Source of the DNA: Verrucomicrobiota bacterium
GTDB lineage: Bacteria; Verrucomicrobiota; Verrucomicrobiia; Limisphaerales; CAIQOK01
Direction: 5' to 3'
NCBI GenBank assembly: GCA_046346715.1
Contig: JAXMHO010000002.1
Span: forward strand, 83,059-147,058
DNA length: 64,000 bases
Shown piece by piece: positions 9,742 to 22,057 of this stretch. Made by a program: the position numbers and the translations under genes. Under the pieces are notes generated by a model. That model searched no databases and was not told the DNA's origin. It saw only the letters and a list, made by a program, of their open reading frames with translations. Position 1 is the stretch's first letter, and each line of letters opens with the position of its first letter.

Positions 9742-9834
9742 TGAGGGCCGGTGTTCATCGTCGGTGTGCCGGTAACTGCATTTAACCCCGGGACAGCGAA
9801 CGCAAAGAGAAAACCAAATTCGGATACAACAACT

Positions 9835-11103
9835 ATGAAGAAGAACTCTTGTCTCAAAACCCTCAACAAAAGCGTTTGGGTCGGCGGCGCCCTCCTGAGC
9901 AGCGCGGTCATGGCCTTGGCCGACGACACCAGCGATCTCAAAGCACGCGTCGCTCAGCTCGAAGCCATTGCGGCCAAGGAAGGCATCCTGCCCAGTGGCA
10001 CGACCCCCCCGAAATTCGTCTCGGCGATGTCAGACATCACCGTCAGCGGCTTCGTGCAGGCGTCCTACTTTTACAACACCCGTCATCCGGCCGACGGCAA
10101 ATCGGACGGCTACCTGTGGAACACTTCCGACAATTCATTCTCACTCAACAAATTCAAGCTCACCCTGGCAAGCAAGCCGGTCGCGACGGACAAGTGGGAC
10201 GCCGGTTTCCGCGCGTCGCTCATGTTCGGTGAAGACGCCGCCGACCTGAACTCCGGCAGCACCACCACCGTGCTGACTCCGCCCACGTCCTTTCCCGGAA
10301 CGACCACCACGGCGGCCGTCGCCGGCTTTGACGGCCTGCGCGAGGCGTTCGTTGAAATCAACGTCCCCATCGGCACGGGCCTGAACATCAAGGCGGGCGA
10401 ACTGATCTCGCTCCTCAACTGGGAATCCGGCGACGGCGGCGCGGCCAACCCCAACTTCTCCCAGGGCAACCAGTGGTGGTTCACCGGCAACGGCCCCTCG
10501 GCCGGCGTGCAGGCAACCTATAATTTCACCGACAAGGTCGGCCTGACCTTGCGCGTGGACAACGGCCTGTTCCAAGGCCCCGTGGACAACAACGAAGGCA
10601 AGGCGTTCAGCGGCAGCCTGGCGTTCAAGCCGACCAAGGATCTCTGGTTCAACATCATTGGCTGGTATGACGATCAGCCCGGCGGCACGGACGTCTCCGG
10701 CTTCTCGACGATTGGCGGCCTCCAGGTCACCAAGGCGCTGGGCACGGGCTGGGAACTCGACTACTTCAACTTCAGCTCCCCCGGCAACGCGAGCGATCTC
10801 TGGTCCGGCGGCCTCTGGGTCTGGTATGACTTCACCTCCAAGCTCGGCGTCGCCCTGCGTGCCGACTACATCGGCAGCCCAGACCCGACGTTTGGTCTCG
10901 GACCTGCGGTTCGTCCCGGCGCCGGCGTGACCACCTTCGCCACCGGCGAAAACCACATCGGCAGCGTGACCTTCACGGTCAACCTCAAGCCGACCGCCAG
11001 CCTGAAGATCCAGCCGGAGCTTCGCTACGACTTCACCAACGGCCGGCTCGACGGCAAGCGTGACCGCGTGATCGTCGGCTGCGGCGCGACCTACATGTTC
11101 TAA
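9835..11103 (+). CDS. outer-membrane beta-barrel porin (possibly a urea/short-chain amide porin)
   Basis: Track ORF 9751; ATG 9835 gives a signal peptide ([29 protein letters not shown]), a short coiled-coil segment, an alternating beta-strand pattern and a C-terminal ...GCGATYMF aromatic end. Sits immediately upstream of urtA. Confidence 0.55.
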
Positions 11104-11153
11104 GCCGGACCACCACCAACCAAAAGCACACAACACAAACGACCAACGAAACT

Positions 11154-12437
11154 ATGAAATCATTCCTCAGCAAATTGACCCTGGCCGCCGGCGCGCTGCT
11201 CGTGGCCGCGTCAACGCAGGCCGCCGACATCGTGAAGATCGGCGTGCTGCATTCGCTCAGCGGCACCATGGCCATCAGCGAGACGTCCCTGCGCGACGTC
11301 GCGCTGTTTGCCTTCGACGAAATCAACAAGGCCGGCGGCGTGAAGCTCGGCGACAAGTCCTACAAGATCGAGCCCGTCATCGTGGACGGCGCGTCGAACT
11401 GGCCGCTCTTCGCCGAAAAGGCCAAGCAGCTGCTCGAAGTGGACAAGGTCGCCGTGACCTTCGGCTGCTGGACCTCGGTCAGCCGCAAGTCCGTCCTGCC
11501 GGTGTACGAGAAGGACAACGGCCTGTTGTTCTATCCCGTGCAGTATGAAGGCGAGGAACTCTCCAAGAACATCTTCTACACGGCCGAAGCCGTGAACCAG
11601 CAGGCCACGCCCGCCGTGGATTACCTGCTGAAGATGGGCAAGAAGAAGTTCTACCTCCTCGGCACCGACTACGTGTATCCGCAGACCACCAACCTCATCC
11701 TCTACAAATACCTGCTGCTCCATGGCATCTCGATCGAGAACATCGGCGGCGGCTTCCGCAAGGATGACTCGGGCAAGGTGATCTCCGCCGGCAAATACGT
11801 TCCGTTCGGCCACACCGACTTCCAGCAGATCGTGGCGGACATCAAGCAGTTTGCCGCCAGCGGCGACGCCTGCGTGCTGAACACCATCAACGGCGACTCC
11901 AACGTCCCGCTGTTCAAGGAAATCGCGGCGGCGGGTTTGAGCGCGGCCGACTGCCCGGTCGTTTCCTTCAGCTTGTCGGAAGACGAACTCCGCGCGCTGC
12001 CCACCAAGGACCTCGTCGGCGAACTCGGCTGCTGGACCTACTTCATGTCCATCGACTCGCCCGACAACAAGGCGTTCCTCAAGAACTGGGATGCCTGGCT
12101 CAAAACCCAGAGCTACCCCGGCGTCGTGAAGGAAAAGCGCGTCATGTGCAGCCCCATGGTGCTTACCTATAACGGCATCTACCTCTGGAAGGCCGCGGCG
12201 GAAAAGGCCGGCACGTTTGACGTGGACAAGGTTCGCGAAGTCCTGGAGTCCGGCGAGATCAGCATGACTGGTCCCGGCGGCAAGACCACGATGAACAAGA
12301 ACCATCACACCACCAAGAACGTCTACATCGGCGAAACCAAGGCCAACGGACAGTTCAAGATTCTGGAAACGTTCATGAACGTTTACGGCGAACCCTTCCT
12401 CCTGAAGGGCCTCGACGAGAAGCTCGGCGCGAAGTGA
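11154..12437 (+). CDS. urtA: urea ABC transporter substrate-binding protein
   Basis: 427 aa. Signal peptide [23 protein letters not shown], then [23 protein letters not shown]..., typical of UrtA. Followed by urtBCDE and the urease genes. Confidence 0.9.
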
Positions 12438-12444
12438 TTCCAAC

Positions 12445-12529
12445 CCGGATGAACCCTGACTCAGTTCATCCGGTCCTGACGTGAACCGGAGTCATCTCAG
12501 AGGGCGGAGGATGGTTTCCTCCGCCCTCT
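12445..12529 (+). promoter_or_regulatory. two intercistronic stem-loops between urtA and urtB
   Basis: CCGGATGAAC-N9-GTTCATCCGG (12445-12473) and AGAGGGCGGAGGA-TGGTT-TCCTCCGCCCTCT (12499-12529, perfect 13-bp stem) followed by TTCTG. The probable urtB ATG is at 12538. Confidence 0.6.
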
Positions 12530-12537
12530 TTCTGAAA

Positions 12538-14280
12538 ATGCGATCCCCACTTCAACACCTCCTGATCCTGACCTGCGCCCTGCTGCTGCCGCTTTTGGGG
12601 CGCGCCGAGGACGATGCCGCCATCCGGCAAAAGCTCGCCCAGGCCATCCTGAGCAGCGGCGACGAGCAGAAAAAGCTCCTGGATGAGCTCGGCGACACCG
12701 GGCGGAAGTTTTTACGCGAGCCGCTGCTGGCCTGGACCCGCGACGGCGTCTTCCTCTTCGAATCCACCAACGCCACGGGCAAAATTCCGCTGATGCTGGA
12801 GGAGCAGACCGATGCCGACGGTAAGGCCCGCGCCATTCTGCTCGCCGACGGATCATTTTTGAAGGATGACAAGAACCAGGAACTGCGCTTTGGCAGCAGC
12901 GACCTGACTGCCGCCGACACGGATGCCGGCCTGCGCCTCAAGATTCAGCAGACCTTGGACACGCTGGCCCTTTCCGATCCCGATCCCAACGCCCGCGCCA
13001 CGGCCATCACGAAGCTGGGCAATTCACAGAAGCCGAAAAACATCCCCGTCCTCCAGGCCCGCCTGACCAAGGAAACCGACACTGATGTCAAACGCACCAT
13101 TCAGGAAGCCATCGCTTTGCTGCAACTGGGCAGCACCGATCCGCAGGTCCAGATCACCGCCGCCACCCAGCTCGCCGACCTCGAATCCATCGGCAGCATG
13201 GACGCCCTGAACAAGCTCGCCGCCAACAAAAGCCTGCCGCCGGAAGTTTCGCTGGCCGTCGGCAAAGCCATCGCCCGGATTCAGAACCACATCTCGGTGG
13301 TGAATTTCTTCGGCACCATTTTCCGCGGCGCCAGCCTGGGCTCCATTCTTTTGATCGTCGCGCTGGGCCTGGCCATCACCTTCGGGCTGATGGGCGTGAT
13401 CAACATGGCGCACGGCGAGATGATCGCCGTGGGCGCCTACACCAGCTACGTGGTGCAGAACCTTTTCGGCGCGGGCTTTTCCTTCTCGGTCAACCTGCCC
13501 TTTCAATTCGCCGGCAAACCGCTCGGCTTCGGCCTGCATCTGCCCGGACTGAACGCCACGGGCTGGTTCTATGAAAGCTACTTCCTGTTCGTGCTGCCGC
13601 TGAGCTTCCTGATGGCCGCGCTGACGGGCTGGGTGGTGGAACGCTGCGTCATCCGTTTCCTCTACCGCCGTCCGCTCGAATCGCTGCTCGCCACCTGGGG
13701 CGTGTCGCTGGTGATGCAGCAGCTCTTCCGCATGGTTTTCGGCGCGAACAACGTGCAGGTCAATTCGCCGTCGTGGCTTCAGGGCCACTTTGACATCAAC
13801 GACATTTCGTTCGGTTACAACCGCGTGTTCGTCATTGCCTTCGCCGGTCTCATTGTGCTCGGCACCTGGCTGCTCCTGACCAAGACGCCGCTCGGCCTGC
13901 TGATCCGCGCCGTGATGCAGAACCGCAACATGGCCGCGTGCATGGGCGTCCGCACTGACCGCGTCAACATGATGACGTTCGCCTTCGGCTCGGGACTGGC
14001 CGGACTGGCGGGCGCGTTTCTCTCCCAGATCGGCAACGTCGGCCCCAGCCTCGGCCAGAGCTACATCGTGGACAGCTTCATGACAGTGGTGGTCGGCGGC
14101 GTCGGCAGCATCGTCGGCACGGTCTATTCCGCCATCGGCATCGGCACGGCGGACCAGATTCTGCAACAGGTCACCGGTTCGCCGGTCACCGGAAAAATCG
14201 TGGTGCTGATCAGCATCATCCTGTTTCTCCAGTGGAAGCCCGGCGGACTCTTCGCCATCCGCAGCCGCAGCCTTGATTGA
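12538..14280 (+). CDS. urtB: urea ABC transporter permease with a long N-terminal periplasmic extension
   Basis: Track ORF 12481; ATG 12538 gives MRSPLQHLLILTCALLLPLLG (signal-like). The C-terminal ~300 aa form a LivH/UrtB permease (LGLAITFGLMGVINMAHGEM...). About 270 extra N-terminal residues carry HEAT-like repeats. Confidence 0.85.
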   Translation: MRSPLQHLLILTCALLLPLLGRAEDDAAIRQKLAQAILSSGDEQKKLLDELGDTGRKFLREPLLAWTRDGVFLFESTNATGKIPLMLEEQTDADGKARAILLADGSFLKDDKNQELRFGSSDLTAADTDAGLRLKIQQTLDTLALSDPDPNARATAITKLGNSQKPKNIPVLQARLTKETDTDVKRTIQEAIALLQLGSTDPQVQITAATQLADLESIGSMDALNKLAANKSLPPEVSLAVGKAIARIQNHISVVNFFGTIFRGASLGSILLIVALGLAITFGLMGVINMAHGEMIAVGAYTSYVVQNLFGAGFSFSVNLPFQFAGKPLGFGLHLPGLNATGWFYESYFLFVLPLSFLMAALTGWVVERCVIRFLYRRPLESLLATWGVSLVMQQLFRMVFGANNVQVNSPSWLQGHFDINDISFGYNRVFVIAFAGLIVLGTWLLLTKTPLGLLIRAVMQNRNMAACMGVRTDRVNMMTFAFGSGLAGLAGAFLSQIGNVGPSLGQSYIVDSFMTVVVGGVGSIVGTVYSAIGIGTADQILQQVTGSPVTGKIVVLISIILFLQWKPGGLFAIRSRSLD

Positions 14281-14286
14281 TTTCCC

Positions 14287-15435
14287 ATGACTCGCACGTT
14301 TTCCAAAACCGAAATGCTGGTGGTGGGCGCGGTCGCCTTCCTGGCGATGGTCGTCCTGCCCGGCCTCAACGCGTTTACGCCGGAAACCAGCGCGCTGCAC
14401 GTCAGCAATTTCACCATCAACCTCTTCGGCAAATACCTCTGCTACGCCATCCTCGCCATCAGCGTGGACCTGCTCTGGGGTTACACCGGCCTGCTCAGCC
14501 TTGGTCAGGCGATGTATTTCACCCTCGGCGGCTACATGATGGGCATGTATCTGATGCGGATGATCGGCGACCTCGGCCAGTATCACAAACCCATCCCGGA
14601 CTTTCTGGTGTTCCTCGGCTGGAACAATCTGCCGGCGTTCTGGAAGCCCTTCAGCAGCTTTCCGTTCGCGCTGGTGATGGCGTTCCTTCTGCCCTGCACG
14701 CTGTCGCTGGTCTTCGGTTTTCTCGCCTTCCGCTCCCGCATCCGCGGCGTTTACTTTTCCATCCTCACTCAGGCGCTGACTTATGGCGCGTGCCTGCTGT
14801 TCTTCCGCAACAGCCTGCTGCTCGGCGGCAACAACGGGTTCACGGATTTCAAGTTCGTCCTCGGGTTCGATGTCCGCTCGGCCGCAACCCAGCGCGGGCT
14901 TTACATCGCCACCACGATTGTGCTGCTGCTGGTCTATCTCCTGTGCCGCTGGCTGAGCCGCACCAAGTTCGGCCTCGTGCAGCAGGCAATTCGTGACAGC
15001 GAAAACCGCGTGCTGTTCAGCGGCTACGCGGCGGGCAATTTCAAGCTGTTCGTCTTCGTCCTCGCCGCCGCCATCGCCGCAGTCGGCGGCGTCCTGTATG
15101 TCCCGCAGGTCGGCATCATCAACCCGAGCGAAATGTCCCCCGACAAGTCCCTCGAAGCGGTTGTCTGGGTCGCGGTCGGCGGCCGCGGCACGTTGCTCGG
15201 GCCGATCCTCGGCGCGGTCGGCGTGAACGCGCTCAAAAGCTGGGCCACCCGCGCCTATCCGGACCTGTGGCTCATTTTTCTCGGCACCCTGTTTGTGCTG
15301 GTGACGCTGTTCATGCCAAAGGGTCTCGTCGGCCTGCCGGAACAATTGCGCGCCTTGAAGAAAAAGTTTTTTGGACGGACCAACCCGGAGTCCAACGCCG
15401 CGAATTCCGCCAAACCCGTTGCTGAAACCAAATGA
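14287..15435 (+). CDS. urtC: urea ABC transporter permease
   Basis: 382-aa multipass LivM/UrtC-like protein (DLLWGYTGLLSLGQAMYFTLGGY). Confidence 0.85.
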   Translation: MTRTFSKTEMLVVGAVAFLAMVVLPGLNAFTPETSALHVSNFTINLFGKYLCYAILAISVDLLWGYTGLLSLGQAMYFTLGGYMMGMYLMRMIGDLGQYHKPIPDFLVFLGWNNLPAFWKPFSSFPFALVMAFLLPCTLSLVFGFLAFRSRIRGVYFSILTQALTYGACLLFFRNSLLLGGNNGFTDFKFVLGFDVRSAATQRGLYIATTIVLLLVYLLCRWLSRTKFGLVQQAIRDSENRVLFSGYAAGNFKLFVFVLAAAIAAVGGVLYVPQVGIINPSEMSPDKSLEAVVWVAVGGRGTLLGPILGAVGVNALKSWATRAYPDLWLIFLGTLFVLVTLFMPKGLVGLPEQLRALKKKFFGRTNPESNAANSAKPVAETK

Positions 15436-16199
15436 GCATGTCAGCCCGCCAGTTTATCCTGATGCTTGAGGACGTGAGCAAGTCCTTCGAAGGCTTCAAG
15501 GCGATCTCCAACCTCACCTTCTACATGGATGAAGGCGAACTCCGCACGGTCATCGGCCCCAATGGCGCCGGCAAAAGCTCCATGCTCGATCTCATCACCG
15601 GCCGCACCAAGCCGGACACCGGCAAGATCGAATTCGGCCGCGACACCGATCTGACCGCGTTGAACGAACACCAGATCAACCGCCTCGGCATCGGGCGCAA
15701 ATTCCAGACGCCCTCGGTGTATGTGGACCACACGGTCTTCGAGAACATCCTGCTTTCCCTGAAAGGCTCCCGCAGTGTCTTCTCCACGCTCTTCCACCGC
15801 ATAAATTCGGAGGAACGCGACCGCATCCATTCCGTGCTCAACACGGTGAACCTCTCGGACAAGGCCCAGTGGAAGGCCGGCGCCCTGAGCCACGGCCAGA
15901 AGCAATGGCTGGAGATCGGCATGCTGCTCGCCCAGGACCCGCGCCTGCTGCTGGTGGACGAACCCGCCGCCGGCATGACCGACGAGGAAACGCACAAGAC
16001 CGGCGAACTCCTCATCAGCCTCGCCGGCAAGCACAGCATCATCGTCATCGAGCATGACATGACCTTCGTCCGGCAGATTGCCCGCAAGGTGACGGTGCTC
16101 CATCAGGGAACGGTCCTCTGCGAAGGCTCGGTGGACGAGGTGCAGAACGACGAGCGCGTCATCGAGGTGTATCTCGGCAAAAAGAAAAGGGCGGCGTGA
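15432..16199 (+). CDS. urtD: urea ABC transporter ATP-binding protein
   Basis: Walker A GPNGAGKSS, signature LSHGQKQWLEIG, Walker B LLLVDEPAAGM. The start overlaps the urtC stop (ATGA). Confidence 0.9.
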   Translation: MSMSARQFILMLEDVSKSFEGFKAISNLTFYMDEGELRTVIGPNGAGKSSMLDLITGRTKPDTGKIEFGRDTDLTALNEHQINRLGIGRKFQTPSVYVDHTVFENILLSLKGSRSVFSTLFHRINSEERDRIHSVLNTVNLSDKAQWKAGALSHGQKQWLEIGMLLAQDPRLLLVDEPAAGMTDEETHKTGELLISLAGKHSIIVIEHDMTFVRQIARKVTVLHQGTVLCEGSVDEVQNDERVIEVYLGKKKRAA

Positions 16200-16217
16200 A
16201 CCTTTCAACCTTTTAAC

Positions 16218-16913
16218 ATGCTCAACCTGTCCAACCTCAACGTCAGCTACGACGGCTCCCGCATCCTGCGCGGCGTCAACCTGACCGTTCCCGAAAAGAG
16301 CCTGGTCTGCCTGATGGGCCGCAACGGCGTCGGCAAGACCACCACGCTGAAATCCATCGTCGGCCTCGCCCGCCTCGACAGCGGCGACATCTCCCTCGGC
16401 GGCCAGTCGCTCAACCACCTCAAGCCCGACGCCCGCGCCCGGACGGGGATCGGCTACGTGCCGCAGGGCCGCGACATTTTCCCGCATCTGACCGTGGCCG
16501 AAAACCTCAAGCTCGGCCTGGTGGTTCACGGCAAAAAAGCCAACGGGCAGATGGACCGGGTGCTCGAACTGTTCCCCATCCTGAAGGAATTTCTCCCGCG
16601 CAAGGGCGGCGTGCTCAGCGGCGGCCAGCAGCAGCAGCTTGCCATCGCCCGCGCCCTGCTGACCGATCCGAAGATTTTGATCCTCGACGAACCAACCGAG
16701 GGCATCCAGCCGAACATCATTGATCTCATTGGCGAAACACTGATGAAGATCAAGCAGGAGGGACGCATCAGCATCCTGCTCGTCGAACAATACCTCGACT
16801 TCTGCCTCGAGGTTGGCGACCTTTTTTACATCATGGACCGCGGCGCGGTGGTTGCCGAAGGCCCGATCAGCAAGCTCAACGACGAGATCGTGAAACAACA
16901 TCTGACTGTCTAA
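16218..16913 (+). CDS. urtE: urea ABC transporter ATP-binding protein
   Basis: Walker A GRNGVGKTT, LSGGQQQQLAIARAL, ILILDEPTEG. Confidence 0.9.
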   Translation: MLNLSNLNVSYDGSRILRGVNLTVPEKSLVCLMGRNGVGKTTTLKSIVGLARLDSGDISLGGQSLNHLKPDARARTGIGYVPQGRDIFPHLTVAENLKLGLVVHGKKANGQMDRVLELFPILKEFLPRKGGVLSGGQQQQLAIARALLTDPKILILDEPTEGIQPNIIDLIGETLMKIKQEGRISILLVEQYLDFCLEVGDLFYIMDRGAVVAEGPISKLNDEIVKQHLTV

Positions 16914-16914
16914 C

Positions 16915-17751
16915 GTGGTCGCACCCGCCCTCCAAACCCCGTCACTATTCCGCAGCGGCAACGCCTCGCTGACCGTCGAACTGGTGTTTGGTCAAAGCAC
17001 CGCCACCTCCAGCTACGCGGTCAGCCCCATGAAGCTCCTGACGCCCGTGGCGCGCGGCCAAAGCGTGTGGTCTTACACCAGCAGCTTCGGCGGCGGGCTG
17101 GTTGCCGGCGACAAAACCCGGCTCGAAGTCAGCGTCAACTCCGGCGCGCGTTGTTTCCTCGGCACGCAATCCTCCACGAAAGTTTATCGCAATCCCGCCG
17201 CCTTGCCCTGCGAACACGTGACCCATGCAACCGTTGCCGAGGACGCCATGCTGGTGTTCGCGCCTGAACCGGTGCAGGCGTTCGCGGATTCTCATTACAC
17301 GCAACGACAGGAATTTCATCTCGCGCCCAGCGCCGGGTTGGTTTTGCTCGATTGGTTCAGTTCCGGCCGCGCCGCCCGGGGCGAACGTTGGGCGTTCAAG
17401 CATTTCGAGAGTCGCAACGACATCTTCGTTGGGGGCGAACGCGCGCTGGTTGATCCCATCCTGCTGAACTCCGACGAACTCGCCGAGCGCATGGGCCGGT
17501 TTAATTGCCTCGCCACGCTGCTGCTCCTCGGCCCGCCGCTGAAGACCGCCGGTGATTCACTGTTGCAACTGGTCGCCGCGCGCGCGGTGGAAAAGCGCGC
17601 CGAGCTGAATGTTAGCGTGAGTCCAGTGCGCGGCGGAGTGTTGTTCCGCGTGGCGGGAGCACAAGTGGAAGCCGTGCGCCGCGAACTGAGTGGACACCTG
17701 GCCTTTCTACACGACATCCTTGGCGACGATCCGTGGGCGCGGAAGTGGTGA
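16915..17751 (+). CDS. ureD: urease accessory protein UreD
   Basis: 278 aa with SFGGGLVAGD...GTQSSTKVYRN UreD/UreH-type region. GTG start 1 nt after the urtE stop. Confidence 0.8.
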   Translation: MVAPALQTPSLFRSGNASLTVELVFGQSTATSSYAVSPMKLLTPVARGQSVWSYTSSFGGGLVAGDKTRLEVSVNSGARCFLGTQSSTKVYRNPAALPCEHVTHATVAEDAMLVFAPEPVQAFADSHYTQRQEFHLAPSAGLVLLDWFSSGRAARGERWAFKHFESRNDIFVGGERALVDPILLNSDELAERMGRFNCLATLLLLGPPLKTAGDSLLQLVAARAVEKRAELNVSVSPVRGGVLFRVAGAQVEAVRRELSGHLAFLHDILGDDPWARKW

Positions 17752-17754
17752 ATC

Positions 17755-17976
17755 AACCACGGATAAACACAGATGAACACGGATAAAACCAAAAGCCAGC
17801 GGCAGGACAGGCGCGTTTTGGACTGCGGTGGGAAGCGAAGCGCCACACCGCTTTCACACGCAAGACAGTTACCTCTTATTCGCAAGCCTCTCGCCCGCCC
17901 GAGAGCGCCGTCGCCGCTACGCTTTGCCGGCGCAGGCCAAAACGTCATCCGTGTTTATCCGTGTCCATCCGTGGTT
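17755..17976. repeat. 222-bp element with ~32-bp terminal inverted repeats made of tandem GGATNNACAC units (MITE-like)
   Basis: The left arm AACCACGGATAAACACAGATGAACACGGATAAAA (17755-17788) is complementary to the right arm TCATCCGTGTTTATCCGTGTCCATCCGTGGTT (17946-17976). The ~157-bp interior carries further small palindromes and a CGCCGCTAC REP-type tail. It fills the ureD-ureAB spacer. Confidence 0.7.
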
Positions 17977-17990
17977 AAAACTTTTTGGTT

Positions 17991-18824
17991 ATGCATTTAA
18001 GTCCTCGTGAACTAGACAAACTGACGCTGCATCAGGCGGGCTCGCTTGCGCAGAAGCGCCTCGCTCGCGGCGTGAAGTTGAATCATCCCGAATCTGTGGC
18101 GCTCATCGCCACCGTGCTGCTGGAATTCATCCGCGATGGCAAGAGTGTCGCCGAGTTGATGAACCTTGGCCGCCAGTTGCTCGGTCGCAATCAAGTCATG
18201 TCCGGCGTGCCGGAGATGATTTACGACGTGCAGGTGGAAGGCACGTTCCCCGACGGCTCGAAGCTCGTCACCGTGCATCATCCCATCGCCAGCGAGAACG
18301 GCGATTTGAAACTCGCGCTCCACGGCAGCTTCCTGCCCGTGCCGGATGTTTCCCTTTTCGTGCCCGGTCTCCATGAACCGGGACGCCTCCTCTCCCCGTC
18401 CCTCTCCTCCATTCCGAATGGAGGAGAGGGTGGCCGCAGGCCTGGAGAGGAGGAGTTCTTCATTCCCGGTGCGACGGAGATCAAGGACGGCGAGATCGAA
18501 CTCAATGTCGGTCGCGCGACGGCGGAGATTCCCGTCACGAATTTCGGCGACCGCCCGATTCAAGTCGGCAGCCACTACCATTTCATCGAGACGAACGCGG
18601 CGTTGCAGTTTGATCGCGGCGCGGCCTACGGCAAACGCCTCGACATCCCGGCGGGCACAGCCGTTCGTTTTGAGCCCGGCGAAACCAAGACCGTGAAGCT
18701 GGTTGAGATCGCCGGCAAGAAAGTCATTCGCGGCGGCAACAACCTCGCGAGCGGCAAAGTTTCGGCGGCGGGCAAGAAAGCCGCCTTGAAGAAGGTGAAA
18801 GCCAAAGGATTTGCAACCACGTGA
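17991..18824 (+). CDS. ureAB: urease gamma-beta fusion subunit
   Basis: ATG 17991. The first ~100 aa are gamma ([39 protein letters not shown]...VTVHHPI). A linker follows. The beta part is [18 protein letters not shown]...[17 protein letters not shown]...[10 protein letters not shown], with a C-terminal [14 protein letters not shown]...KAKGF tail. Confidence 0.9.
18384..18455. repeat. nested palindromic element (CCCTCTCCTCC/GGAGGAGAGGG family) lying in-frame in the ureAB linker
   Basis: Outer arms CCTCCTCTCC (18386-18395) / GGAGAGGAGG (18444-18453). Inner arms CCCTCTCCTCC (18400-18410) / GGAGGAGAGGG (18420-18430), loop ATTCCGAAT. Translated as [25 protein letters not shown]. Confidence 0.75.
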
Positions 18825-18826
18825 TT

Positions 18827-18888
18827 AACCACAAAGCCACAAAGTCACAGAGAGAAAGTTTTCTCCGTGCCTCTGTGTCTCTGTGGTT
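18827..18888. repeat. hairpin element AACCAC-(A[AG]AGNCAC)n ... GTGGTT after ureAB
   Basis: AACCACAAAGCCACAAAGTCACAGAGAG-loop-CTCCGTGCCTCTGTGTCTCTGTGGTT. Starts 3 nt after the ureAB stop and ends 12 nt before the ureC ATG. Confidence 0.75.
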
Positions 18889-18900
18889 CAGAAAGATGCT

Positions 18901-20616
18901 ATGTCCCACAAAATGAAACGCGCCCATTACGCCGACATGTTCGGCCCAACCACCGGCGACAAAATCCGCCTCGGCGACACGTCGCTCATCGCGGTGGTTG
19001 AGAAGGATTTCACCGTGTATGGCGACGAATGCAAATTCGGTGGCGGTAAAGTTATCCGCGAAGGCATGGGCCAGGCCGCCGGCGTCGGCGCGGCGGGTGC
19101 GCTGGATTGCGTCATCACCAACGCGCTCGTGCTCGATCACACCGGCATCTACAAGGCCGACATCGGCATCAAACACGGACTCATCTCCGGCATCGGGAAG
19201 GCGGGCAATCCCGACATGATGGCGGGGGTGACCAAGGGCATGGTCGTCGGTGTCACCACCGAAGTCATCGCAGGCGAAGGTTTGATTCTCACAGCGGGCG
19301 GTCTCGACACGCATATCCATTTCATCTGCCCGCAACAGGCGCACGAGGCGATTGCAGCGGGGCTCACCACGATGGTCGGCGGCGGCACTGGCCCGGCGGT
19401 CGGCACTTGCGCCACGACCTGCACGCCCGCGCCGAATTACATCCGCGAGATGCTGCGCGCCGTGGATGCGTTGCCGTTGAACTTCGGTTTCACCGGCAAA
19501 GGCAACACCGCCATGCCCGCTGGTCTCGCCGACCAGATCAAAGCCGGTGTCATCGGCCTGAAGCTGCACGAAGACTGGGGCACAACGCCCGCGGCGATTG
19601 ATTGCTGTCTCGGCATCGCGGACAAGCACGACGTGCAGGTGACGATCCACACCGACACGTTGAACGAATCCACGTTCGTCGAAGGCACGATCGCCGCGTT
19701 CAAGGGTCGCACGATCCACACCTATCACAGCGAAGGCGCGGGCGGCGGTCACGCCCCGGACATCATCCGCATCTGCGGCGAACCGAATGTGCTGCCGAGT
19801 TCCACCAACCCGACGCGGCCTTACACGGTCAACACGATTGACGAGCATCTAGACATGCTCATGGTCTGCCATCATCTCGATCCGAACCTCCCGGAGGACG
19901 TGGCGTTTGCCGAAAGTCGCATTCGCGGCGAGACCATCGCGGCGGAAGATATTCTGCATGACATGGGCGCGATCAGCATGATGAGTTCGGATTCGCAGGC
20001 AATGGGCCGCATCGGCGAAGTCATCACGCGCAGTTGGCAGACGGCGGACAAGATGAAGCAGCAACGTGGTCGCTTGCCGGAGGAAAAAGGCGACAACGAC
20101 AACGTCCGCATCAAGCGTTACCTCTCGAAATACACGATCAATCCCGCGCTCGCCCACGGTATGGCGCACGTCATCGGCTCGATTGAAGTCGGCAAGCTCG
20201 CTGATCTCGTGCTGTGGAAGCCCTCCATGTTCGGCGCGAAGCCCGAGATGGTCATCAAAGGCGGGTTCATCGCATGGGCGCAGATGGGCGACCCGAACGC
20301 GAGCATCCCGACGCCGCAACCGGTTTACATGCGCCCGATGTTCGGCGCGTTTGGCCGCGCGACCGGTGCGACGAGCATCGCGTTCGTCAGCCAGCTCGCC
20401 AAGAAGGCGAATGTTGGGAAAGCCTACGGGCTGACCAAGCAGGTCGTCGCCGTGAAAGGCTGCCGCAAAGTTGGCAAGAAGGATTTGAAGTGGAACAACG
20501 CAATGCCGAAGATCACCGTTGATCCGGAGACCTACGAGGTGCGCGCCGATGGTGAATTGCTGACGTGTCAGCCGGCGAAAGTGTTACCCCTCGCGCAAAG
20601 ATATAACCTCTTTTGA
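18901..20616 (+). CDS. ureC: urease alpha subunit
   Basis: The track ORF starts at GTG 18883 inside the hairpin; ATG 18901 gives [27 protein letters not shown]. Motifs [52 protein letters not shown]-terminal LAQRYNLF. Confidence 0.95.
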
Positions 20617-21347
20617 AAAACCACAGAGGCACAAAGGCACAGAGTTCAAGGGGACTTGATTCAATTCGAGTCCCCTCTGTGTCTCTGTGTCTCCGTGGTG
20701 AAAAGGATTTCCTCATCTGGCAGCTCTGTGATTCCGCATTCCCCACGGGAGGCTTTGCACACTCGTCCGGCCTGGAGGCCGCCTGGCAACACGGGGAAGT
20801 GCGCGGACGCACGGAACTGGTCGCGTTCATCAAAACCAGTTTGGACCAACTCGGCCACGCGATGCTGCCGTTCGTCACCGAGTCGTTTGATGCGCCAGAT
20901 AAACTCACCGAGTTCGACGCGCTCTGCGACGCGTTCACAACGAATCACGTCGCCAATCGTGCTAGCCGCGCGCAAGGCCGGGCGTTCCTGACGGCGGTGG
21001 AACGCATATTCAAAGCGGAAAGCGGAAAGCGGAAGGCGGAAACATCGTTCGCGCACTTCGCGCCGGTCTTTGGTGCGTGCTTGAGCCGCTTGGAGATTTC
21101 CCGCGAGACCGCCATGCGCCTCTTCCTCTTCAATCAACTCCGTGCCGTGCTGGCCGCCGCGGTGCGCTTGAACATCGTCGGCCCGATGGAAGCGCAGATG
21201 CTCCAGCACCAACTGTCCGCTGAAGCCGAGCGAGTGCGCCAGTGTTGCGAAGCGTTGTCGCTCGATCAGATTGCCCAGACCGCGCCGTTGCTCGACTTGT
21301 GGCAAGGCGCGCAGGACCGGCTTTACTCCCGACTTTTCCAAAGCTAA
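20613..21347 (+). CDS. ureF: urease accessory protein UreF (start uncertain)
   Basis: The track ORF starts at TTG 20613, overlapping the ureC stop, and reads through the hairpin repeat. The conserved part begins near 20700 ([25 protein letters not shown]). An in-frame GTG at 20679 is an alternative start. Confidence 0.8.
20619..20700. repeat. hairpin element AACCAC-(AGAGGCAC)n ... GTGGTG after ureC
   Basis: AACCACAGAGGCACAAAGGCACAGAG ... CTCTGTGTCTCTGTGTCTCCGTGGTG with an inner 8-bp stem AGGGGACT/AGTCCCCT. Starts 3 nt after the ureC stop. Confidence 0.75.
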
Positions 21348-21352
21348 CCACT

Positions 21353-22057
21353 ATGCGAATCCTCCTTCATCAAGGTCACGCCGACAGCCCCGGACATTTT
21401 CATGACCGCGAACTTCCGCTCGACCGCGACTTCAAACAGCGCGCTTTCACCGTCGGTGTCGGCGGGCCGGTGGGCAGCGGCAAGACGGCGTTGATGCTGC
21501 AACTCTGCCTCAAGCTCCGCGAGAAGATGAACATCGCGGCGGTGACCAATGACATCTTCACCAAGGAAGACGGCGAGTTCCTCACGAAGCACGGCGCGTT
21601 GCCCGCCGAACGGATTCGTGCCGTGGAAACCGGCGGCTGCCCGCACGCCGCCATCCGCGAGGACATCTCCGCCAATCTGCTGGCGCTTGAAGAACTGCAT
21701 GTGCTGTTCAAACCGCAGCTCCTGTTCATTGAATCCGGTGGCGACAACTTGGCCGCATGCTTCAGTCGCGAACTTGCGGACTTCACGATTCAAGTGATCG
21801 ACGTCTGCGGCGGCGACAAGATTCCGCGCAAAGGCGGCCCGGGCATCACGCAGAGCGATTTGCTCGTCATCAACAAGACGGACCTGGCCGCGGGCGTCGG
21901 GGCGGACTTGAAGGTGATGGAGCGCGACACGAAGAAGATGCGCGGGGATGGTCCGTTTGTTTTTGCACAGGTGAAGAACGGCGTCGGGGTGGACGAAATC
22001 ATCCATCACATCATCCATTCGTGGCAACACGCCACGGGCGTGGCACACGGCCATTGA
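21353..22057 (+). CDS. ureG: urease accessory GTPase UreG with a His-containing N-terminal extension
   Basis: Track ORF 21242; ATG 21353 gives [45 protein letters not shown]. Also [25 protein letters not shown]. Confidence 0.9.

Follow-up and report, generated by a model that had tools for sequence, protein, structure and literature searches.

In the ureases of Klebsiella aerogenes and Sporosarcina pasteurii, which are matured by UreDEFG, the gamma and beta chains are separate and UreE is required. The urease of Helicobacter pylori and H. mustelae (1E9Y, 3QGA) consists of a gamma-beta chain (UreA) with a C-terminal beta tail and a separate alpha chain (UreB), and Helicobacter also uses UreE. 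The eukaryotic systems with single-chain ureases (pigeon pea 4G7E and jack bean 3LA4; Arabidopsis UreG and UreF; Cryptococcus neoformans Ure1, Ure4, Ure6, and Ure7) have no UreE. In C. neoformans, the histidine-rich N-terminus of Ure7 binds nickel, and the substitution of these histidines with alanine abolishes the activity (PMC3663189). The chain number of the primitive urease and the route from three chains to one were called unanswered in a review (PMC6077230), whose account of Ligabue-Braun 2013 gives a “3-to-1” inference and the judgment that the only two-chain urease known, that of Helicobacter, is not an intermediate toward the eukaryotic enzymes. Here, a urease operon was analyzed in a stretch of 64,000 nucleotides (the window) from a Verrucomicrobiota bacterium (assembly GCA_046346715.1, contig JAXMHO010000002.1, positions 83,059 to 147,058 of the forward strand). 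It is an intact operon without UreE and a member of a clade that spans several bacterial phyla. Since this clade holds the gamma-beta linker, the UreG extension, and the signature residues of the eukaryotic systems, lacks UreE, and has the eukaryotes branching with or inside it, the eukaryotic urease systems most likely derive from such an operon (probability about 0.75).

Gamma-beta fusion and linker of UreAB

The urease genes of the window are located on the plus strand in the following order:

16915..17751, plus strand: ureD, accessory protein (scaffold); Pfam PF01774, E=3e-53
17991..18824, plus strand: ureAB, fused gamma-beta urease subunit, 277 residues from MHLSPRE; Pfam gamma and beta domains, NF009671
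18294..18368, plus strand: eukaryote-type gamma-beta linker, residues 102-126 of UreAB, located by alignment
~18369..18452, plus strand: in-frame insert in the linker, 27-28 residues, specific to the window and absent from relatives
18883..20616, plus strand: ureC, catalytic alpha subunit as a separate gene; Pfam Urease_alpha and Amidohydro_1, TIGR01792 962 bits
20613 or 20679..21347, plus strand: ureF, accessory protein; Pfam PF01730
21353..22057, plus strand: ureG, GTPase, 234 residues, true start at ATG 21353; TIGR00101 279 bits
21353..21445, plus strand: N-terminal extension of UreG with four histidines; motif common to eukaryotic and fused-type bacterial UreG

Domain analysis of UreAB revealed Urease_gamma at residues 3-101 and Urease_beta at residues 161-258 in one frame (open reading frame (ORF) numbered from 17985), and the NCBI family NF009671, “bifunctional urease subunit gamma/beta”, was matched with 329.9 bits against a cut-off of 243. 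The alpha chain was separate, with the ureAB stop codon at 18822-18824, a gap of 58 nt, and the ureC start at 18883, so the window urease, although related to the eukaryotic single-chain ureases, is not one of them by architecture. The best PDB matches of UreAB were pigeon pea 4G7E (E=5e-82) and jack bean 3LA4 (1.4e-80), ahead of Helicobacter UreA, and the phmmer/HMMER alignment to the plant ureases continued through the linker, posterior marks included. Among 1.84 billion cluster representatives, the top match was the urease of Pythium insidiosum, and the other nameable high-ranking matches, from Rhodotorula, Coemansia, Varroa, and further eukaryotes, were likewise single-chain ureases or fragments of them. 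The linker, ENGDLxLALxGSFLPVP, could be aligned to the plant, fungal, and oomycete single-chain ureases residue for residue and was homologous to plant residues ~101-128. In the multiple alignment, it aligned with plants, Rhodotorula, Pythium, alga-like ureases, and bacteria of the GSFLPVP type, and it was gapped in bacteria with separate gamma and beta chains (split type) and in alphaproteobacterial fusions. An earlier reading of the letters alone (the sequence-only reading) had proposed a gamma-beta fusion with a plant-type linker, and this was borne out by the two Pfam domains in one ORF and the alignment to 4G7E and 3LA4; the jack bean string that it gave was close to the real sequence but not exact.

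Bacterial loci for comparison were collected by scanning one genome per GTDB species with the window UreC and taking the best 80 of more than 600 matches. The operon type ureD-ureAB-ureC-ureF-ureG without ureE (fused type) occurred in Verrucomicrobiota, Planctomycetota, Myxococcota, Acidobacteriota, Bacteroidota, and Kiritimatiellota. Fusions with the GSFLPVP linker were found in three Verrucomicrobiia metagenome-assembled genomes (MAGs), in Planctomycetota (including Pirellulaceae and Tepidisphaeraceae), in Myxococcota (Anaeromyxobacteraceae, Myxococcaceae, and Haliangiales), and in a Vicinamibacterales acidobacterium, and a variant linker, GSGL, was found in Hymenobacter, Cytophaga, and Pontiella. 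In the order to which the window belongs, 9 of the 12 urease-bearing genomes were of the fused type, which was rare across the phylum Verrucomicrobiota, and a plant-like UreG was common in Myxococcota (~86 of 301 sampled genomes, about 29%). The traits are thus common to a large multi-phylum clade, and the window operon is a member of it rather than a singular relic. It shares its architecture, linker, gene order, and type of UreG with the other NF009671-type operons (Myxococcota, Planctomycetota, Acidobacteriota, and Verrucomicrobiota), which likewise have no ureE, but differs from them in the linker insert, in hairpin-filled intergenic spacers, and in a shortened histidine tract of UreG.

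The sequence-only reading had also raised the question of how common this linker is among bacterial fusions. It was found only within the clade that holds the eukaryotes, and was absent from Helicobacter and the alphaproteobacterial fusions. In Helicobacter UreA, the junction is direct, from residue 104 to 106 in the H. pylori alignment, so the window urease is not of the Helicobacter type. The independent gamma-beta fusions of Xanthobacteraceae, Microvirga, and Helicobacter were all without the linker and clustered with the split-type enzymes.

The insert in the linker was not present in the three closest Verrucomicrobiia loci (L001-L003) nor in eight relatives of the same order. In the AlphaFold model of UreAB (pLDDT, the predicted local distance difference test score, 81.6), both domains were confident and the linker scored ~90 up to about residue 120, while residues 126-159, the region of the insert, scored below 50; the insert is predicted to be disordered. 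The first structural matches of the model were again plant ureases, with a template modeling (TM) score of 0.43 and a root mean square deviation of 11 Å, values owing to the two domains not being packed as in the complex. The predicted structure is in agreement with the domain folds and a disordered insert, and nothing beyond. A peptide resembling the insert (SLSSPRGGEGGARES) was also seen in an SNF2 helicase at ~25780.

The beta tail of UreAB (KVIRGGN...KAKGF) aligned with the plant tail, as the sequence-only reading had claimed for the plant beta-alpha connector. The same tail was found in Helicobacter UreA, in Sporosarcina UreB, and in the UreB of split-type Nitrospira, Nitrosospira, Binataceae, and Clostridiales. 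It is therefore neither plant-specific nor diagnostic, and it was rejected as a plant trait. The bacterial tail ended in ...GF(A/S/G)H with 3-5 more residues before the stop, and the eukaryotic chains ran past the same GF-x-H into a connector of ~10-35 residues and then the alpha start ...YA.M(F/Y)GPT(T/V)GD. In several loci of the fused type (L001, L003, L005, and L006), the end of the ureAB ORF adjoined or overran the first aligned ureC residues. With ureAB abutting ureC and GF-x-H shared, read-through of the stop codon would suffice to give a single chain. Beta and alpha were fused in one ORF in three other loci (L061 and L069, Reyranella and an alphaproteobacterial MAG, and L031); this UreB-UreC fusion of alphaproteobacteria is at the junction opposite to that fused in the window.

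UreG and UreF signatures and the absence of UreE

The window UreG carried the motif H..SPGxFxxR..PL.RDF..RAFTVGIGGPVG ahead of the P-loop, a motif shared by each of the 18 eukaryotic and 17 fused-type bacterial UreG sequences aligned and missing from the split types. At 12 signature columns, the eukaryotes and the fused-type bacteria agreed and the other bacteria differed. Among these, F69 (NDIF), A99, I105, R139 (FSRELAD), and G200 were carried by 82-100% of the fused-type bacteria and by every eukaryote, as against at most 4% of the other bacteria. The UreG of Klebsiella and Sporosarcina lacks the extension and has Y, T, A, and P at signature positions. Five further signature columns of UreF were common to the window and plants, including the DS of WQLxDS, and the stretch DS...PTGGFAHS was shared with the eukaryotic systems. 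The plant-type extension and variants of UreG and the plant-like N-terminus of UreF, both noticed in the sequence-only reading, were therefore real: the UreG motif was in every aligned eukaryote, and its signature columns were nearly absent from other bacteria. For UreF, the conserved sequence began at FLIWQLCDS, and of the two candidate start codons, TTG 20613 and GTG 20679, the latter is more likely. The window UreD was 37-40% identical to the UreD of the GSFLPVP-type loci, compared with 22-30% for the split-type loci.

The window UreG was 76% identical to that of Arabidopsis, the best match among 401 Verrucomicrobiota genomes, and the best match among 301 Myxococcota genomes reached 73%; among the fused-type members, it was the closest to plants (at most 73% elsewhere). 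As a homologue-search query, it returned only relatives of at least 84% identity and no eukaryotes, and Arabidopsis UreG and UreF were therefore used as queries. The two query sequences had identities of 98% and 87%, respectively, to the corresponding database entries, and the trees used the returned database entries. Eukaryotic structures of UreD, UreF, and UreG were not found in the PDB. Comparison with the UreG structures of H. pylori and K. pneumoniae showed that the P-loop, CPH, and NKTD motifs of the window UreG were intact.

No UreE was found in the operon or in the source genome (68% complete) with PF02814 and PF05194 or with our own hidden Markov model (HMM), which was built from six Pfam-verified UreE sequences and run at E<=10. 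In the census with this HMM, UreE was present in 0 of the 20 fused-type loci versus 47 of the 60 other loci. No UreE_C match above the cut-off was obtained from ten further whole genomes with a fused-type operon, among them one complete chromosome, the genomes of two Hymenobacter isolates, and a same-genus genome with a completeness of 97%. The claim of the sequence-only reading that ureE is missing thus held beyond the operon itself. In all fused-type loci, ureC was directly followed by ureF, except in two with unrelated inserts. In Hymenobacter aranciens (L038, 8667-9143), an ORF encoding a DUF559 endonuclease-like protein was inserted between ureC and ureF, and in a Planctomycetota MAG (L004, 8720-9709), two ORFs without any Pfam match occupied this place; both inserts were rejected as candidates for ureE. 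Two operons outside the fused type, from Nitrosospira (L039) and Nitrospira (L056), encoded three-chain ureases with a long beta tail and also had no ureE between ureC and ureF. Their UreG was sister to the whole clade of fused-type bacteria and eukaryotes (99/85), and these operons may be unfused relatives of that clade.

Most fused-type UreG proteins opened with a long histidine tract, such as MNGHDHSHDHGHSHDHGHSHSHETMDHPG. The number of histidines in the extension was 3-12 in the relatives and four in the window (His6, His9, His15, and His17). Most of the tract was lost in the window UreG in comparison with the 8-12 histidines of L001, L004, L019, L017, and L021; MKSNLHAHSHGGNGHTHEHADSPG stood in the UreG of L001 at the site of the corresponding window segment (21353-21400). 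Because of the precedent of C. neoformans Ure7 and the absence of UreE, the histidine-bearing extension most likely serves as the nickel chaperone in place of UreE, in which case His6, His9, His15, and His17 would receive the nickel. Such a replacement of UreE by UreG has also been proposed for plants.

Phylogeny and the origin of eukaryotic ureases

Unrooted maximum-likelihood trees were built with IQ-TREE under LG+C20+F+G4 with posterior mean site frequencies (PMSF). Columns covering the linker and the UreG extension were stripped before tree building, so these traits could not drive the topology. Plant sequences were taken from PDB alignments, a fungus and alga-like single chains from the search of cluster representatives, and further eukaryotes from the Arabidopsis-seeded homologue searches. 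A Pythium gene model (P0121, with a branch of 2.8 substitutions) was dropped after the earlier urease tree, the Mytilus UreG (P0364) was left out as misaligned, and Pomphorhynchus, Neoechinorhynchus, Radiomyces, and the transposon-fused P0143 were left out as too divergent or partial.

In the UreG tree, 18 eukaryotes and 17 fused-type bacteria formed one clade (100/99) on a long branch, and the eukaryotes within it were monophyletic (100/97). They were sister to the Verrucomicrobia clade of the window with a support of 97/90, which rose to 99/96 after 21 bacterial sequences were added (12 Myxococcota, four other fused-type Verrucomicrobiota, and five close relatives of the window). The H. pylori UreG grouped with Clostridiales among the ordinary bacterial types. 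In the UreF tree, eight plants and 18 fused-type bacteria formed a clade (100/99), and plants plus the GSFLPVP subgroup were supported by 97/82. The urease tree of gamma, beta, and alpha (768 columns) joined 12 GSFLPVP-type bacteria and five eukaryotes (98/94), with seven GSGL-type bacteria added at 100/99, and an earlier urease tree placed the eukaryotes as sister to members of the Planctomycetes-Verrucomicrobia-Chlamydiae (PVC) group (84/90). The UreC-only tree of all loci recovered fused-type bacteria plus eukaryotes (99), with cyanobacteria as a separate clade and alphaproteobacteria among the split types. The kinship with this operon type also indicates that the eukaryotic urease is of neither mitochondrial (alphaproteobacterial) nor plastid (cyanobacterial) origin. 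Among the sampled bacteria, the Verrucomicrobia lineage of the window is the nearest to eukaryotes in UreG, and in urease it is one of the nearest. The kinship with eukaryotic ureases that the sequence-only reading had put forward was therefore recovered for urease, UreG, and UreF, all of them apart from the three-subunit bacterial enzymes, and both indels examined, the gamma-beta linker and the UreG extension, are shared with the eukaryotes.

In a concatenate of urease, UreG, and UreF (1183 columns), the plants were nested together with the window, an Anaeromyxobacteraceae genome, and L001 (97/96). This concatenate uses composite legume taxa and assumes one shared history for the operon genes. 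With these data, the approximately unbiased (AU) test rejected the monophyly of the fused-type bacteria as a whole (p=0.00085) and also that of the GSFLPVP type alone (p=0.029). The nesting of the eukaryotes in the bacterial diversity, together with the operon organization, favors a transfer from bacteria to eukaryotes.

Several points weigh against a derivation of the eukaryotic systems from such an operon. A bacteria-only clade was not rejected by the single-gene AU tests (p=0.06-0.32), and the nesting of the eukaryotes therefore rests on the concatenate. The trees were unrooted, so the direction depends on the root among the three-subunit ureases. The UreG and UreF eukaryotes were nearly all streptophytes and green algae, and the bacterial sample was picked by likeness to the window UreC, which could hide closer kin of the eukaryotes. 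With only four histidines, far below its relatives, the nickel-chaperone role of the window UreG is also less obvious.

The alternative that survived best is that the eukaryotes are merely sister to the whole fused-type clade, through a shared ancestor or an unsampled or extinct donor, and that the window lineage is as distant from them as every other member, its apparent nearness reflecting slow evolution or limited sampling. The single genes leave room for it, since bacterial monophyly was not rejected for urease (p=0.196 and 0.057) and for UreG (p=0.32 and 0.098), the plants fell outside all GSFLPVP-type bacteria in the UreF tree, and the support in the urease trees was moderate (85/87 and 84/90 for eukaryote monophyly and the sister relation, and 48/88 for eukaryote monophyly in the later tree). 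This alternative is nevertheless unlikely, because it was rejected by the concatenate, because the UreG tree with denser sampling retained the window clade as sister to the eukaryotes, and because the GSGL and GSFLPVP linkers divide the bacterial clade and the eukaryotes have the GSFLPVP form. A reverse transfer, in which a bacterial ancestor took up the eukaryotic system, split it into two genes, and built it into an operon, drew on the lack of fungi and most protists in the UreG sample, which leaves bacteria inside eukaryotes conceivable for that protein; it is very improbable, as it needs three to four unlinked, intron-bearing genes to be captured and ordered as D-AB-C-F-G in at least six phyla, every tree showed bacteria paraphyletic around monophyletic eukaryotes, and the fungus, plants, and alga-like sequences clustered outside the bacteria in the urease tree. 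Convergence or an artefact of composition, long-branch attraction, or slow-evolving sequences, with the window holding an ordinary urease with an independent Helicobacter-like fusion, can hardly be maintained either: the window UreC was 68-69% identical to plant ureases, not above its identity to many split-type bacteria (65-70%), and independent gamma-beta fusions did arise in Helicobacter, Xanthobacteraceae, and Microvirga, but those fusions had no linker and grouped with the split types, whereas the clade was recovered from three proteins when a site-heterogeneous model was used and the trait columns were excluded, and two homologous indels and 17 signature columns were shared.

If the eukaryotic ureases derive from such a bacterial operon, the later steps would have been a further fusion, by read-through of ureAB into the ureC next to it, and the scattering of the accessory genes. 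More tentatively, and with somewhat less than even odds, the whole eukaryotic system goes back to a single uptake of an operon from a PVC- or Myxococcota-type bacterium in which the gamma-beta fusion and the replacement of UreE were already in place, with the lineage of the window as the closest living relative of the donor. In that case, the two-chain operon would be the missing intermediate of a 3-to-2-to-1 route, and its last step would be read-through of the ureAB stop codon. The two-chain type makes the order of events testable: gamma-beta fusion, loss of UreE with takeover by a histidine-rich UreG, and beta-alpha fusion in eukaryotes. A bacterial origin of this kind adds to the eukaryotic genes of PVC or myxobacterial affinity, and the operon offers a bacterial, operon-encoded, genetically tractable model for the UreE-independent nickel insertion of plants and fungi. 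The fused protein is already an annotated NCBI family (NF009671), and the operon itself is not new; what appears to be new is the combined evidence that, of the “eukaryotic” hallmarks, this family misses just the final fusion, and that it is the closest bacterial relative of the eukaryotic system. Our literature search found no paper linking NF009671-type operons to eukaryotic ureases, which is not proof of novelty.

The single-chain urease of the animal Varroa destructor (P0273) did not join the plant, fungal, and algal enzymes. A first quick tree put it, with a long branch, beside a Clostridiales enzyme within the split types, and the UreC-only tree gave no firm placement. Either an independent acquisition or an artefact could account for this, and not every eukaryotic urease need share the fused-type bacterial origin. 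On a metagenome contig with a GC (guanine plus cytosine) content of 70% (L081, 786-5615), a single-chain urease with the GSFLPVP linker and a cut-off N-terminus lay 1.7 kb from a plant-type ureG, the two genes being divergently transcribed in a head-to-head arrangement; this contig is probably from a gene-dense picoalga that keeps its urea genes clustered.

Operon layout and urea transport genes

The urease genes formed the 3' part of a single co-oriented string on the plus strand at 9751-22057, which comprised a BBP2-type porin, urtABCDE, and ureD-ureAB-ureC-ureF-ureG. The source genome is a 2.9-Mb MAG of a soil-type verrucomicrobium, and its closest database relatives were labeled Verrucomicrobiia or Verrucomicrobiota. 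The genes upstream of ureD were as follows:

9751..11103, plus strand: BBP2/OmpL-like outer-membrane beta-barrel porin, 5' of urtA; Pfam PF07642, E=4.9e-42
11154..12437, plus strand: urtA, substrate-binding protein of the urea ATP-binding cassette (ABC) transporter; TIGR03407 471.8 bits, slightly below the curated cut-off of 492.75; Pfam Peripla_BP_5
12481..14280, plus strand: urtB, permease; TIGR03409 382.7 bits, above the cut-off
14287..15435, plus strand: urtC, permease; TIGR03408 423.7 bits
15432..16199, plus strand: urtD, ATPase; TIGR03411 376.5 bits
16218..16913, plus strand: urtE, ATPase; TIGR03410 315.8 bits

Compared with the eukaryotic systems, which share the homologous linker and the GF-x-H beta tail, the window genes were assembled in one operon that includes urtABCDE, were without introns or targeting peptides, and carried the 28-residue linker insert and the short histidine tract. 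The catalytic site and the UreD/UreF/UreG maturation logic were the same as in Klebsiella and Sporosarcina (858 bits for UreC). The alignment to jack bean 3LA4 showed that the catalytic set of UreC (HxH, carbamylated Lys, two more His, Asp, and the Cys-His of the mobile flap) and its SSDSQAMGR motif were all conserved. At the level of sequence, the sets of Urt and Ure components are complete without UreE, and the catalytic and GTPase motifs are intact, all of which points to a functional operon for urea uptake and hydrolysis. In such an operon, the Urt ABC transporter would import urea, and the two-chain nickel urease (UreAB and UreC) would hydrolyze it after a complex of UreD, UreF, and UreG on the (UreAB-UreC) apoenzyme had assembled the nickel center without UreE. 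Judging by its position, the BBP2/OmpL-like porin is possibly the entry pore for urea. UrtB (12481-13300) had an N-terminal extension of ~270 residues ahead of the permease domain, consisting of a hydrophobic leader and HEAT repeats (PF13646 HEAT_2 at residues 161-212).

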